Origin: an uncultured Candidatus Saccharibacteria bacterium
Lineage (GTDB): Bacteria > Patescibacteriota > Doudnabacteria > UBA920
Length of the DNA stretch: 64,000 nt
Reading direction: 5' to 3'
Assembly: GCA_964597895.1 (NCBI GenBank)
Contig: CAZQZS010000001.1
Location: 81,008-145,007, forward strand
Positions 554-51,362 of the stretch are shown one piece after another. Each line of letters opens with the position of its first letter. Positions within the stretch are counted from its first letter, which is position 1. The translations under genes were made by a program, and so were the position numbers. The notes under the pieces are model-generated. The model searched no databases. It had not been told where the DNA came from and was given only the letters and a program-made list of their open reading frames with translations.

Positions 554-600
554 TATCACATTGACTTTAAGATTAAAACAAATTTTTGCTTGGGCCGACA

Positions 601-672
601 GGTGAAGGCGCGACGAGTGTAGCGAGGAGCGCCGTAGCGAACCCCAAGGTTAAGCGAAAATTTGAGAGGAGA
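601..672 (+). ncRNA. conserved structured motif copy A (candidate leader RNA element of rpmF)
   Basis: About 80% identical to 4743-4814; helix ggcGc...gCgcc vs ggcTc...gAgcc covaries; shared core gagtgtagcga...ggttaagc.aaatttg. Confidence 0.3.
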
Positions 673-738
673 AATTGACGAAGACAGCTAGCGGACAAGT
701 TTGCTTGCCTGCGAGAGGTCGGAGACAATTTTGACGAC

Positions 739-4192: not shown

Positions 4193-4230
4193 TAATTAAG
4201 AAAAAAGCACCGAACGAGATGTCTTTTCTT

Positions 4231-4631
4231 TGGAGCGGGTAAGGGGAATTACGCGTCGGCTTTCTGCTGAAAGCCTCCTTGCCCGGGGTTGCGGAAACCT
4301 GCCACTGGCAGCTTTCCGATCGTTCGCTTTCGGTTTTCTCTGCAGAGAAAACCTCAGCTCACTTCAACCCGTTCGATTCCTCTATAATCATTCCAAAGTA
4401 AAAGCCCCAGCTATCGCTGAGGCATTTACTTTGGAGCGGCTAAGGGGAATGTCGCGTCGGCTTTCTACTGAAAGCCTCCTTGCCCGGGGTTGCGGAAACC
4501 TGCCACTGGCAGCTTTCCGATCGTTCGCTTTCGGTTTTCTCTGCAGAGAAAACCTCAGCTCACTTCAACCCGTTCGATTCCGCTAACTCACCAAAATAAA
4601 AAAGTACCAGGCAAGCTGATACTTTTTTATT
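4231..4631. repeat. 200/201-bp tandem repeat (2 copies) ending in the tRNA-Gly gene; each copy begins with a 19-nt duplicate of the tRNA-Gly 3' end
   Basis: tggagcgggtaaggggaat at 4231 and 4432 (1 mismatch) equals the 3' end of tRNA-Gly at 4632; the rest of each unit is near-identical between copies. Confidence 0.75.
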
Positions 4632-4706: not shown

Positions 4707-4742
4707 AATCTAATGGTGATCAAATTTCTGCTTGGGGCAAGT

Positions 4743-4814
4743 TGGAGCAGGCTCACGGAGTGTAGCGACGGGAGCCGTCGCGACAACGCAGGTTAAGCAG
4801 AAATTTGTAAGGCA
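4743..4814 (+). ncRNA. conserved structured motif copy B
   Basis: Paralogue of 601-672 with compensatory change in the closing helix. Confidence 0.3.
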
Positions 4815-4883
4815 CAATAATGCGGAAGGTGGAGTGGGTCCGCCAGGGGCGGGCACACGCAACCTGCAGCATTAATTGGGCCG

Positions 4884-4960
4884 TGGTCGGGAACCCGGGA
4901 CTCGAACCCGGAACCTCTCGGTCCCAAACCGAGTGCTCTAGCCAATTGAGCCAGTTCCCG
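4884..4960 (-). tRNA. tRNA-Pro (anticodon UGG)
   Basis: Manual cloverleaf: acceptor CGGGAAC/GTTCCCG, anticodon stem CTCGG/CCGAG, loop TTTGGGA, T-arm CCGGG-TTCGAGT-CCCGG, CCA encoded. Confidence 0.85.
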
Positions 4961-5203
4961 AAGCATGATTGCCTCAAATCTACATATGTTACCGAGCCAC
5001 AGCCATCTAAGGCTAGAGGCACTCGGTGAGTGCACTATCTCTTGGTCTGCCTTGGGCAGAACCCAATTGAGCCAGTTCCCGAAGCATGATTGCCTCAAAT
5101 CTACATATGTTACCGAGCCACAGCCATCTAAGGCTAGAGGCACTCGGTGAGTGCACTATCTCTTGGTCTGCCTTGGGCAGAACCCAATTGAGCCAGTTCC
5201 CGT
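4944..5203. repeat. 121-bp tandem repeat, about 2.1 copies, first copy overlapping the 5' 17 nt of tRNA-Pro
   Basis: aattgagccagttcccgaagc... recurs at 4944, 5065, 5186 with identical units. Confidence 0.8.
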
Positions 5204-20379: not shown

Positions 20380-20457
20380 ACTGAGTAGCCATCGCATGGA
20401 TTCTACAAGGACCTATCTTTTTAGCCATTTAGATATCTAATTTAAAACAACAGGGTT

Positions 20458-20575
20458 GTCTGCTAAAAGCCTCGTTGATCGGGGTTGCGGAAACTTGCCA
20501 CTGGCAGCTTTCTCGATCGTTCAACGCGAATTTTTCTGCAGAAAAATTCTTGCTTCACTTCAACCCGTTCGAGTC
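20458..20575. repeat. tRNA-associated conserved module, copy 3 (22-nt perfect palindrome gaatttttctgcagaaaaattc at 20528-20549)
   Basis: Aligns with 4255-4380 and 4456-4581; shared ggggttgcggaaac.tgccactggcagctttc.cgatcgttc ... cttcaacccgttcga. Confidence 0.55.
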
Positions 20576-20593
20576 ATTCCTAGGAAAACCATA

Positions 20594-21706: not shown

Positions 21707-21716
21707 AATCAAAAAG

Positions 21717-21743
21717 ATTGATGGTGCTCTCGGTAGGATTCGG
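21717..21743 (-). repeat. 27-nt duplicate of the tRNA-Arg(UCG) 3' end, located 204 bp downstream of the tRNA
   Basis: gattgatggtgctctcggtaggattcg is identical at 21717-21743 and 21919-21945. Confidence 0.75.
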
Positions 21744-21924
21744 TCACCTCCCGCTACTCTCCTCTCCTTCGACAAGCTCAGGATCGTCGAGTAACGCTGC
21801 GGCGACCCCCGCCGCTATTGATTGCTCCAAATAGTCGCAACCAATTTCCGCTTGCGCGGAACCGCTCTTTTTCTTATCCTGCTGTGCAATCAATCATTTA
21901 TCATCTACGATGAGAAATGATTGA

Positions 21925-22001
21925 TGGTGCTCTCGGTAGGATTCGAACCTACGACCCCTTGTTCCGAAGACAAGTGCTCTAATCCACTGAGCTACGAGAG
22001 C
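21925..22001 (-). tRNA. tRNA-Arg (anticodon UCG)
   Basis: Manual cloverleaf: acceptor GCTCTCG/CGAGAGC, anticodon stem CTTGT/ACAAG, loop CTTCGGA, T-arm GTAGG-TTCGAAT-CCTAC, CCA encoded. Confidence 0.85.
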
Positions 22002-49437: not shown

Positions 49438-49761
49438 TTATGAGCCTGTGACCACAAAGATAATCATAAAGGCGATGATTACGAATAAGAGAATCCAGCC
49501 TAAGGTATAACCTAAAAAGAAAAATGCATCTCGCTTTAAATTATTTAAAAATAGATAGACAGGGCGACCGAACACGAGGATGGCCATAACCGCAACCGAG
49601 AGTACTAATAACAGCAGCATGGCAATCGGGGCCATAAAGGTATCAGGGGTGTTGGCGAAGTACTTTTCTAGATTGGTCATCAGGGTGACGACTAGGCTGA
49701 TGTAGACAACTACGCCGGCGGCGTGCCCAAAGCTATGTAAAAGCATTTTTGATTTGTTCAT
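49438..49761 (-). CDS. small hypothetical membrane protein
   Basis: 107 aa with three predicted TM helices. Confidence 0.35.
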   Translation of the reverse strand: MNKSKMLLHSFGHAAGVVVYISLVVTLMTNLEKYFANTPDTFMAPIAMLLLLVLSVAVMAILVFGRPVYLFLNNLKRDAFFFLGYTLGWILLFVIIAFMIIFVVTGS

Positions 49762-49987
49762 AAAACTCCTTTGTTACATAATTTTGTAACGATTGGGTAA
49801 TGGTAATTGTAACAATCATATGGTAGCTCCGGCTGGGATTGCACCAGCGACCGCGTCGTATCGGGCTTCGCCCGTGCGACGCCAACTTTCGTTGGGTCGC
49901 AACTCAGCTTCGCCGATACTCCTTTAACTTTCTTACTTAACCTCGCTTTACTCGGCCCAAGTAAGAAAGTTGTCCATGAACTCTTGC

Positions 49988-50064
49988 TGGTGGCCTCGAC
50001 TGGGATCGAACCAGTGACCTTGGGCTTAGAAGTCCCCTGCTCTATCCAACTGAGCTACGAGGCC
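49988..50064 (-). tRNA. tRNA-Arg (anticodon UCU), non-canonical anticodon stem
   Basis: Perfect acceptor and T-arm, D-arm identical to E. coli argU, loop CTTCTAA; anticodon stem has G27.A43 and A31.G39 mismatches. Confidence 0.6.
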
Positions 50065-50090
50065 ATCAGCAAGAGTTCATTAATTACTCG

Positions 50091-50125
50091 AAGCCCCTGC
50101 TCTATCCAACTGAGCTTCGGAGCCG
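50091..50125 (-). pseudogene. tRNA-Arg 5'-half fragment (acceptor, D-arm, start of anticodon stem)
   Basis: GGCTCCGAAGCTCAGTTGGATAGAGCAGGGGCTTC is about 90% identical to tRNA-Arg(UCU) nucleotides 1-35. Confidence 0.5.
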
Positions 50126-50167
50126 TGATGCTTATATTATAACAAAAACCGCTGTTTGCGGTTTTCG

Positions 50168-50244
50168 TGGTGCACCCGACAGGATTCGAACCTATGACCT
50201 CTCGCTCCGCAAGCGAACGCTCTATCCAGCTGAGCTACGGGTGC
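50168..50244 (-). tRNA. tRNA-Arg (anticodon GCG as read)
   Basis: Manual cloverleaf: acceptor GCACCCG/CGGGTGC, anticodon stem TTCGC/GCGAG, loop TTGCGGA, T-arm ATAGG-TTCGAAT-CCTGT, CCA encoded. Confidence 0.7.
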
Positions 50245-50405
50245 ACGTCGTAGTTTTCTTCGGGTTTACGAAATCGGCTAAAGCCAATTTCTACCGCCCT
50301 CCGTAAACTACTCCTGTCACATTCACGATTAACTTCGCTCTGCTCGGCCCAAGTGTGAATGTGGTCTAGAGTAACAACTAAAGAATTATAATGAAAAATA
50401 GAGAA

Positions 50406-51362
50406 TTAATCAAGCTCGGCTTGGACGACTTTTTCAGCTTCGGCAGCGGTTTTGCATTCGTATAATTTTGCGCGCAGTTCGGCAGCGCCGTCAAAGCCAT
50501 GTACGTACGCTTTAAAATGGCGCTTCATAACATCAAAGTGTTTGATGTTATTAAATAATTCGTGATAAAGCCTGACATGCTCAAGTAGAACTGTTAATTT
50601 TTCCTCACGGTTTGGTTGGTGTTCAGAAAATAGCCACGGATTTCCAAAAATTGCCCGACCCATCATCACTCCATCACAGCCTGTTTCTGCAACTTTCTGC
50701 TTGGCTTCTTCCACTGAACGGACATCTCCATTGCCGATAATGACCGGCCGGGTTTCTGGCGTTGTCTGTGCGTGGATAAATTTCACAATTTCTAGCATAA
50801 GCTCCCAGTGCGCTGGTACTTTGGACATTTCTTTGCGTGTGCGCAGGTGAATTGCAATTGCGGCTGGCTGTGCTTCTAATAATTTACCGATCCAGTTTTG
50901 CCAATCTACTTTAGTATCGCCAATTCTAATTTTGCAGGATACTGGTAAATCCCCAGCGCCTTCTTTAGCAGCTAGAATAATTTCTTTGGCGAGTTCGGGT
51001 GTGTGAAATAAACCGGCACACGAACCTGTTTTAATAATTGCTTTGTCGGGACAACCCATGTTGATATCAATACCGTCAAATCCAAGCTCACGAGCCAGCT
51101 TGGCTGTATCTTTAAACTTGTCTGGTTTGGTGCCAAAGATTTGCGCCACTACAGGATGCTCGCCGTCACTCAGCCAGAGGTGATGGATAAGCTTTTCCCG
51201 TCCGGCACTCATCAAGCCATCAGTTGACACAAACTCAGTATAAAAGACATCTGGCTTGCCATATTTGGCGATGATGCGGCGAAATGCTTCGTCGGTCACA
51301 TCATACAGCGGCGCCAGAGCCATAATCGGTTTAGGTAAAGTTTTCCAAAAATTCTTAGACAT
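50406..51362 (-). CDS. dus: tRNA-dihydrouridine synthase
   Basis: 318 aa TIM-barrel flavoenzyme with Dus-like N-terminus (LAPLYDVTDEAFRRI). Confidence 0.8.
   Translation of the reverse strand: MSKNFWKTLPKPIMALAPLYDVTDEAFRRIIAKYGKPDVFYTEFVSTDGLMSAGREKLIHHLWLSDGEHPVVAQIFGTKPDKFKDTAKLARELGFDGIDINMGCPDKAIIKTGSCAGLFHTPELAKEIILAAKEGAGDLPVSCKIRIGDTKVDWQNWIGKLLEAQPAAIAIHLRTRKEMSKVPAHWELMLEIVKFIHAQTTPETRPVIIGNGDVRSVEEAKQKVAETGCDGVMMGRAIFGNPWLFSEHQPNREEKLTVLLEHVRLYHELFNNIKHFDVMKRHFKAYVHGFDGAAELRAKLYECKTAAEAEKVVQAELD

Follow-up and report, generated by a model that had tools for sequence, protein, structure and literature searches.

A putative tRNA-targeted insert carrying a complete tRNA-Arg(UCU) and a structured RNA at a tRNA gene of Saccharibacteria

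Insertions at tRNA genes and the composite tRNA-Arg(UCU) locus

Phages, integrative and conjugative elements (ICEs) and genomic islands reportedly integrate into tRNA genes and restore the gene in doing so. Split and permuted tRNA genes with complementary leader/trailer helices occur in Nanoarchaeum, other Archaea and Cyanidioschyzon, and RNase III processing stems enclose the rRNAs in bacterial precursors; we know of no RNase III-type stem enclosing a single bacterial tRNA. The tRNAs of Patescibacteria contain many group I introns without an open reading frame (ORF) at loop positions such as 35/36 (PMC13011429). In this work we analyzed a tRNA-Arg(UCU) locus in 64,000 nt of DNA (the window) from an uncultured Candidatus Saccharibacteria bacterium (assembly GCA_964597895.1, contig CAZQZS010000001.1, positions 81,008 to 145,007). 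We read the locus as a variant of tRNA-targeted insertion, in which a 235-nt insert containing a complete tRNA-Arg(UCU), here called tRNA', and a 120-nt structured RNA, module B, lies between two fragments that are the ends of one resident tRNA-Arg(UCU) gene, X. We give a probability of about 0.68 to the reading that this is a composite X allele, split by the tRNA'/module insert and provided by it with a working tRNA', which was inserted once, was exchanged between Saccharibacteria and yields a precursor clamped by a helix.

Like the integration of a phage, ICE or island, the insertion targets a tRNA gene, the incoming tRNA is functional, the displaced part is seen as a direct repeat and presence varies between genomes. 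Unlike such integration, the insert has no integrase or ORF, and the tRNA that it supplies is complete, leader and trailer included; both target halves stay in place, with breakpoints at about positions 38 and 45, and the locus seems to have spread as a whole by homologous exchange. Like the Patescibacteria group I introns, the insert is structured, has no ORF, is of comparable size and interrupts the anticodon region of a tRNA gene from the Candidate Phyla Radiation (CPR), but it has no group I core, its would-be exons are incomplete and decayed, and it holds a tRNA. The tRNA half-genes and a complementary flanking helix of ~14 bp recall split and permuted tRNA genes, except that here the helix encloses an intact tRNA, there is no bulge-helix-bulge, the organism is a bacterium and the halves are relics. 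As in the RNase III stems of rRNAs, a leader-trailer helix of at least 20 bp is predicted to surround a whole stable RNA. The locus can be regarded as tRNA-targeted integration in miniature, by an element in which no recombinase is apparent.

Resident gene, insert and inverted repeat

tRNA', the inverted repeat, both X fragments and module B all lie on the minus strand; the strand, as well as the 120-nt structured RNA and its second copy upstream of tRNA-Arg(GCG), had been omitted from the original prediction, which was made from the sequence of the window. The insert (50086..49853, without any ORF) begins with a linker, TAATTA (50086..50081; CTATTA in the related locus L020), followed by the left arm of the inverted repeat in the tRNA' 5' leader (ATGAACTCTTGCTG, 50080..50067), the two bases AT (50066-50065), tRNA' (50064..49988), the right arm (CAGCAAGAGTTCAT, 49989..49976), which overlaps the CA of the tRNA' CCA end, a GGA linker (49975-49973) and module B (49972..49853). 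The junctions read CTTC(G/T)AG-(T/C)TATTAATGAAC on the left and ACGACGC-GGTC on the right, and a circular form would join the two insert ends, TAATTAATGAAC and ACGACGC. Self-comparison and alignment with relatives placed a 5' remnant of X before the insert (GGCTCCGAAGCTCAGTTGGATAGAGCAGGGGCTTCGAG, 50124..50087), with the acceptor strand GGCTCCG, the D arm, the 5' strand of the anticodon stem minus A31 and the loop to CTTC. Behind the insert is a 3' remnant (GGTCGCTGGTGCAATCCCAGCCGGAGCTACCA, 49852..49821), with the variable loop GGTC, the T arm GCTGG/CCAGC, a decayed T loop TGCAATC, the acceptor strand CGGAGCT and ACCA. An assembly artefact was ruled out, since the assemblies of the window, L006 and L020 are independent and show the same architecture.

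The two fragments had been taken for a 5'-half copy and a degenerate 3'-end copy of the central tRNA. Both are real, but neither is a copy of tRNA': their acceptor strands match a resident gene found in L016 and L017. L016 has one intact tRNA-Arg(UCU) gene right before an rluB-like gene, with the acceptor GGCTCCG/CGGAGCC and the T stem GCTGG/CCAGC (X type), and L017 is of X type and uninterrupted as far as the T arm, which is the part used here because of an odd 3' end (CCGGTACCAATCGGCTCCAC) near the contig end. In the window the X acceptor strands GGCTCCG and CGGAGCT pair with each other at 7/7 positions, including G1.U72. Since they pair mutually and match the intact gene of L016/L017, the fragments are, as judged from this alignment, the ends of one resident gene X that was split by the insert. 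The insert sits between X positions ~38 and 45, and X lacks only ~5 nt (about 40-44) plus A31. The decay of X in the window comprises the deletion of A31, U55 to G, G57A and C72 to U, and both pieces are best read as decaying relics. For annotation, this means that tRNA halves beside intact tRNAs here would be insertion relics and neither introns nor split genes.

With respect to tRNA', the 5' remnant is 90% identical to its 5' part over 31 nt and the 3' remnant is 78% identical to its 3' end over 32 nt (25/32). These values could suggest that one tRNA-Arg(UCU) was partly duplicated on both sides in situ and then decayed, without any foreign DNA, and perfect tandem partial duplications are known at tRNA-Pro in the window. 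However, the aligned outer pieces equal the intact gene of relatives and differ from tRNA' by compensated changes at pairs 4-69, 5-68 and the T-stem pair 49-65, which indicates that tRNA' represents another allele and did not arise by local copying. In-situ duplication would require that the functional inner copy changed while the pseudogene pieces stayed ancestral, and between clades the cassette is ~97% identical where the flanks are ~73% identical. Given the compensated allele differences and the contrast in divergence between cassette and flanks, we rejected this explanation as highly improbable. As a side observation, the X-type 3' acceptor strand of L017 is itself broken (4310-4421), near the contig end, by unrelated sequence with an inverted repeat (CCGGTACCAAT...AATTGGTAC), and this break may be another insertion or an assembly chimera.

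tRNA' itself is a tRNA-Arg(tct) according to ARAGORN, and it scores 62.3 bits against RF00005 (gathering 29) over model positions 1-71. The Rfam match is in the canonical register, which is also that of the original prediction. The features of a bacterial elongator tRNA-Arg(UCU) cloverleaf are present: a 7-bp acceptor stem (GGCCTCG/CGAGGCC), D and T arms (T stem ACTGG/CCAGT), a 7-nt anticodon loop, U33 and an encoded CCA. The gene is 77/77 identical in L006 and L020 and, as read from the sequence, also identical in L022. We concluded that tRNA' is the working tRNA-Arg(UCU) gene now. The mismatched anticodon stem of the original prediction is borne out as well: 27-43 (G.A) and 31-39 (A.G) are the only non-canonical pairs flagged, and tRNA' therefore does not have five standard anticodon-stem pairs. 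The same G27.A43 and A31.G39 are found in the X-type gene of L016 and in a third intact type, Y (GGCCCCG/CGGGGCC; L023, L024 and L025), as read in L023 and L024, while the pair 28-42 covaries among the allele types (G-C or A-U); in L021, which is more distant, the anticodon stem consists of five Watson-Crick pairs. Because the mismatches are kept in three allele types with 28-42 covarying, they are a conserved trait of the tRNA-Arg(UCU) of this subclade and not decay, and anticodon-stem mismatches need not signal a pseudogene.

It could also be proposed that X is live and that the insert is a group I or other intron in its anticodon loop, which would account for an interruption in the anticodon loop/stem of a CPR tRNA. 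Rfam 15 at gathering score detected only tRNAs in the whole 64 kb, and at E<=10 over 49700-50450 on both strands there was no Intron_gpI (RF00028) or other intron or ribozyme family; besides tRNAs, only chance-level matches were obtained (YrlA at 28.5 bits vs 69, twister-sister and permuted tmRNA). The would-be exons, without positions ~40-44 and A31, cannot rebuild the anticodon stem, and G55 is found in the T loop. The two L006 pieces do not match each other, L022 has no 5' exon, and a complete tRNA with identical specificity lies inside the insert. With no catalytic core, incomplete exons and two incompatible relatives, the intron explanation was rejected and is in our view hardly credible.

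The perfect 14-bp inverted repeat that the original prediction had placed around the tRNA is exact, ATGAACTCTTGCTG (50080..50067) pairing at every position with CAGCAAGAGTTCAT (49989..49976). No other perfect 14-nt inverted repeat in the 64 kb has a long spacer (~0.06 such repeats are expected from block shuffles); nine other 14-mer inverted matches are overlapping positions of three hairpins with spacers of 3-19 nt. Among the other six tRNAs of the window, leader and trailer never pair over more than 6 nt. The repeat helix continues by way of a U-A pair and one A.C mismatch into the acceptor stem, so that 23 nt in all are 96% complementary, and by its length it qualifies as a continuous leader-trailer helix of the RNase III type (~20 bp or more). 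The minimum-free-energy and centroid predictions both form the helix, with z = -6.2 for tRNA' plus arms and z = -7.9 for the whole unit. A left arm identical to that of the window is present in L006 and L020 and absent in L022. The right arm is unchanged in L020 and L022 and has one C to T change in L006, the only arm substitution, which turns a G-C pair into G.U. Linkers and arms are 100% conserved relative to L020, whose neutral spacers are saturated with changes. Across orthologous loci, the comparison by which the prediction was to be checked, the repeat is present where the insert is and gone where the insert is gone. Small size, absence of coding sequence and 14-bp terminal inverted repeats around a 107-bp unit resemble miniature inverted-repeat transposable elements (MITEs) and cis-mobilizable elements (CIMEs). 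Unlike these, the unit has no target-site duplication (flanks TAATTA and GGACAA) and one copy in 64 kb, with the arm motif occurring once per genome segment, and L022 has one arm only; a MITE was therefore rejected.

We infer that the repeat would act as a precursor-processing or folding clamp. In the mechanism that we propose, an extended -10 element of X (TGtTATAAT, 50136..50144, 11 nt upstream of X position 1) probably gives rise to one precursor containing 5' X, the leader arm, tRNA', the trailer arm, module B and 3' X in this order. The element was read from the sequence, and the entire composite transcript is presumed to be driven by it. Its sequence TTGTTATAAT is kept at the same place in L006, L020, L017 and L024; a consensus promoter scan made no call at this site (50144..50136), where the -35 is weak. 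In this precursor the 14-bp helix would stack on the acceptor stem (23 bp including one A.C mismatch), hold the real ends of tRNA' together and block mispairing with decoy halves that are 78-90% identical to it. It would also offer a double-stranded cleavage site to an enzyme of the RNase III kind, freeing tRNA' for RNase P and 3' trimming. No terminator was predicted 3' of the X 3' piece, so that transcription may run on into the 107-aa ORF and the rluB-like gene.

In the minimum-free-energy prediction the two X acceptor strands pair with each other and so enclose the unit, and this pairing is perfect in the window and L020. It might be argued from this that the X halves are kept because they close a 305-nt unit as a tRNA-like handle (acceptor plus T arm), which RNase P and 3' processing enzymes would use to excise tRNA' and the module. 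In L006, however, the pairing is broken by a C.A mismatch, L022 is without the 5' half and the T loop of the window has decayed. This pattern fits recency better than constraint, and a functional nested scaffold is very unlikely.

Filled and empty loci among relatives

Orthologous loci were fetched via homologues of the upstream dus gene and the downstream 107-aa ORF. Three contigs (L013, L014 and L018) end right after dus, probably at repeated tRNA/module sequence, and are uninformative. The Dus proteins form two clades that are ~75% identical to each other: clade 1 with the window, L006, L013 and L024 (91-99% identity) and clade 2 with L020 and L017 (95%). The insert is carried by the window, L006 and L020 and partly by L022, and it is absent from L024/L025, L017, L016, L021 and L023. 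In clade 1 the window and L006 are filled and L024 is empty (Dus 91-94% identical; 94% to L006), and in clade 2 L020 is filled and L017 is empty (Dus 95%). The insert-bearing genomes of clade 1 hold X-type relics, even though L024, which is closely related to them, carries a gene of the Y type. The tRNA-Arg(UCU) gene of L021 is intact and more distant.

When the two clades were compared, we observed an insert that is ~97% identical between genomes whose dus genes are ~73% identical. Between L020 and the window, dus is 72.6% and module A, the second module copy, 84.6% identical; the spacers are mostly unalignable, and the downstream spacer windows reach 48-69%. Left arm and linker, in contrast, are identical at 20/20, right arm and linker at 15/15 and module B at 116/120 positions, and a sliding profile shows a plateau of 95-100% exactly over 50082..49843. 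Within clade 1, the window and L006 share 80.5% identity in dus and 84-87% in the downstream ORFs, against 41/41 and 42/42 in the two spacers and 92-100% in 40-nt windows from the dus stop to module B (100% in most). This intergenic block of ~550 nt (window 49853-50405, L006 6373-6925; 95-100% identity overall) has sharp edges at the dus stop codon and at the module B end, and it looks like a recent recombination tract.

The patchy presence of the insert among near relatives, together with the contrast between cassette and flank divergence, suggests that the composite locus has been exchanged horizontally. The deletion of A31 is common to the window, L006 and L020, and since all three full copies share it a single origin is indicated. 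A single insertion event in a genome with an X-type gene is the simplest reading and has good support, as does the subsequent passage of the disrupted locus as a whole from one Saccharibacteria lineage to another by homologous recombination, for which the conserved tRNA sequences and the neighboring DNA could serve as homology arms. The 3' pieces differ between genomes. In the window the piece is X-type with extra decay, in L020 it has a tRNA'-type 5' part and an X-type 3' part, in L006 it is fully tRNA'-type (a 32/32 direct repeat), and in L022 it is resident-type, with a Y-type T stem and an X-type acceptor. Gene conversion between the 32-nt direct repeats probably produced these differences.

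An alternative is that the cassette, the module and two further small element families, called R and G/K and found at other tRNA genes (below), are non-autonomous miniature integrative elements, which a tyrosine recombinase acting in trans inserts site-specifically into tRNA genes. The element would then supply tRNA sequence and displace the resident part as a direct repeat, as with the attP of a phage or ICE. Two hallmarks of integrative elements are indeed present, a direct repeat of the tRNA 3' part and, in closely related genomes, both filled and empty sites. Several of the elements are flanked by direct repeats of tRNA 3' ends that start in the T loop or the variable loop: 32/32 nt in L006, 26/26 nt after tRNA-Arg(TCG), 22-23 nt in L016/L022, 18 nt after tRNA-Ala in L004, and two tandem units after tRNA-Gly. 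The tandem units look like tandem accretion at att sites, and one element family can be found at different tRNAs in different genomes. A XerC/D-like tyrosine recombinase, the window's only one and below equivalog cut-offs, is encoded two genes from the insert. On the other hand, this gene keeps its syntenic place whether or not a genome has the cassette, and no integrase is encoded inside any element, the insert being 235 nt without an ORF. Retention of both target halves together with a whole incoming tRNA is not attL/attR geometry, and the A31 deletion in the flanking target piece of three genomes is more easily explained by one event and co-transfer than by repeated integration. Genome-specific trailer bases are part of the repeats that follow R elements. 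Searches of viral contigs gave no match to the module motif or to the left arm plus tRNA' start, and the matches to the core words of R (8) and G/K (5) were all chance, inside unrelated sequence. We consider such site-specific integration unlikely, though it deserves to be kept in mind. The syntenic recombinase of L019 (1193-3499) is 768 aa long with an intein that carries a LAGLIDADG domain. No transposase, reverse transcriptase or phage genes were found in the window, which does contain type IV pilus genes.

Several points weigh against a single insertion followed by exchange and a helix-clamped precursor. The related loci compared are only nine, and none of them has tRNA' as its sole uninterrupted resident gene. 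The helix shows no double compensatory change, its single change being the G-C to G.U of L006. L022 keeps the right arm at 14/14 while the left arm is absent because a DUF167 ORF is fused to tRNA' +1 there; a right arm kept without its partner implies that pairing is not the sole reason for its persistence, or that the arm is simply young. Likewise, the conservation of arms and linkers may reflect only the youth of the cassette. Promoter, co-transcription and cleavage are predictions from the sequence. Finally, the recurrent tRNA-end copies described below point to a systematic, possibly site-specific process rather than to one accident plus recombination.

The structured RNA module and other elements at tRNA genes

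Module B (starting CAACTTTC; 104.5 bits with our covariance model R1) and module A (50364..50245, minus strand; 114.8 bits) belong to one family. Module B consists of P1, a long hairpin with the invariant apical sequence CTTGGGCCGAGnnnAGCGAGGTTAAG, a junction AAAGGAG, P2 enclosing the hairpin P3, and a 3' tail ACGACGC. The apical motif TTGGGCCGAGnnnAGCGAnGTTAA occurs twice in the window (0 expected), and among one-genome-per-species contigs it was found in Saccharibacteria, Doudnabacteria, Parcubacteria and two metagenome-assembled genomes labelled Gammaproteobacteria. A metagenome scan with the motif yielded 4 loci only. The alignment of 11 sequences folded by RNAalifold has 36 pairs, 24 of which show compensatory changes. 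R1 gave 26 matches at E<=1 in the searched sequence, and in an alignment of the 18 at E<=1e-10, 93.3% of the cells are paired vs 29-38% with the partners slid; none of 500 shuffles reached the observed pairing value on any measure. Neither module has an Rfam match at E<=10 other than a 10.9-bit, chance-level overlap with permuted transfer-messenger RNA (tmRNA; E = 8.1). Based on the 93% of paired cells and the 24/36 compensatory pairs, we concluded that the module is a real structured RNA of a so far unannotated family; our literature search found nothing on the module or on mini-inserts that carry a tRNA. The analysis thus uncovers an unannotated, strongly covarying RNA.

The position of the module relative to the next gene is fixed. 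Its 3' end, ...GAC(G/A)N, abuts +1 of tRNA-Arg(GCG), tRNA-Ala, tRNA-Ile, tRNA-Ser, tRNA-Cys and tRNA-fMet, module A ending 1 nt before +1 of tRNA-Arg(GCG), and in L009 it abuts a probable tmRNA start at the contig end. It also abuts the ATG of rpmF in the window and that of an unannotated ORF in L001, neither being separated from the module by a Shine-Dalgarno sequence, and in L002 a terminator follows. A tRNA 3' fragment follows the module in the window (module B), L006, L020, L022 and L004, in the last case after tRNA-Ala. At least four copies of the family are present in these 64 kb. The third (578-737, plus strand; R1 73.7 bits) has an enlarged P1 tip and sits behind a promoter, TTGACT-17-TATAAT; it ends with GACGAC right at the ATG of ribosomal protein L32 (rpmF, 739-903) without an intervening Shine-Dalgarno sequence, and its AGGAG at the foot of P2 could be a structurally split Shine-Dalgarno sequence and spacer. 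The fourth is a weak match (4720-4884, plus strand; 42.3 bits) between tRNA-Gly and tRNA-Pro, which abuts, on the opposite strand, the antisense 3' end of tRNA-Pro.

Such a layout would suit a self-cleaving or RNase-directing element, a split Shine-Dalgarno sequence or a riboswitch-like leader, and the fixed spacing to tRNA +1 or the start codon bears on how the 5' ends of stable RNAs and some mRNAs are set or regulated. A bolder proposal, which we regard as speculative, is that the module is a new class of cis-acting leader RNA that fixes the 5' end of the next gene and joins R and G/K as tRNA-colonizing elements, the cassette being a selfish element that brings its own tRNA, kills the resident gene and replaces it. 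Several variants of the module were also observed. The P1 tip of module A contains a large insertion in L024 (1571-1733) and L015 (4055-4202). In L020 module A (4511-4630) the 'invariant' apical motif has been rewritten, which indicates that it is not strictly required. Among the loci from the metagenome scan, L010 has the P1 hairpin only, while L011 and L012 are probably chance matches in ORF-like sequence with no clear hairpin.

The original prediction had linked the locus to a window-wide pattern of tRNA-fragment duplications, and this link holds. A structured element together with a 3'-end copy of the preceding tRNA occurs at tRNA-Gly, tRNA-Arg(TCG), tRNA-Arg(GCG), tRNA-Ala and tRNA-Ile in this genome and its relatives. 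The G/K element (~135 nt, CGAACGGGTTGAAGTGA...GTTTCCGCAACCCCG) is found on the minus strand at 4224-4585 and 20450-20582. At the first site, after tRNA-Gly, it occurs twice in tandem (period 201, 96% identity), and each copy has 19 nt of the tRNA-Gly 3' end repeated behind it (4432-4450 and 4231-4249); at the second, after tRNA-Lys, it occurs once and without a Lys fragment. Every G/K copy begins with sequence antisense to a T loop. The R element (~165 nt, GCGACTATTTGGAGCA...GGCGGGGGTCGCCGCAGCG...GGGAGGTGACC), which has no Rfam match, follows tRNA-Arg(TCG) in the window (21716-21944, minus strand), where it is bracketed by exact direct repeats of 26 nt, 6 of them trailer bases. Members of the R family also follow tRNA-Arg(GCG) in L016 (4498-4682) and L022 (1222-1423), each with a 22-23-nt copy of the 3' end of that tRNA, and tRNA-Ile in L004 (from about 5835). 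The tRNA-Pro duplications are the mirror image of these 3'-end copies: at 4942-5202 (minus strand) a 121-nt unit is repeated 2.2 times at 100% identity, every unit opening with the 5'-terminal 19 nt of tRNA-Pro (CGGGAACTGGCTCAATTGG) and the final one being the real tRNA-Pro. The module, R and G/K may form one set of protein-free structured-RNA elements that duplicate tRNA ends in CPR bacteria. In these ultra-small genomes, tRNA genes appear to be hot spots for tiny, protein-free RNA-gene cassettes that insert there, take over from the resident gene and cross species boundaries.

Upstream of X lies tRNA-Arg(GCG) (50244..50168, minus strand; ARAGORN and Rfam), which is preceded by module A with its own promoter (TTGATT-17-TATAAT, 50413..50385, from the promoter scan) and followed by a terminator hairpin (AAAACCGCaaacaGCGGTTTTT, 50166..50142). 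The usual bacterial anticodon for CGN arginine codons is ACG, normally read as inosine-CG. The CGN-reading tRNA-Arg of this locus has the anticodon GCG, and the same anticodon was seen in every relative fetched.

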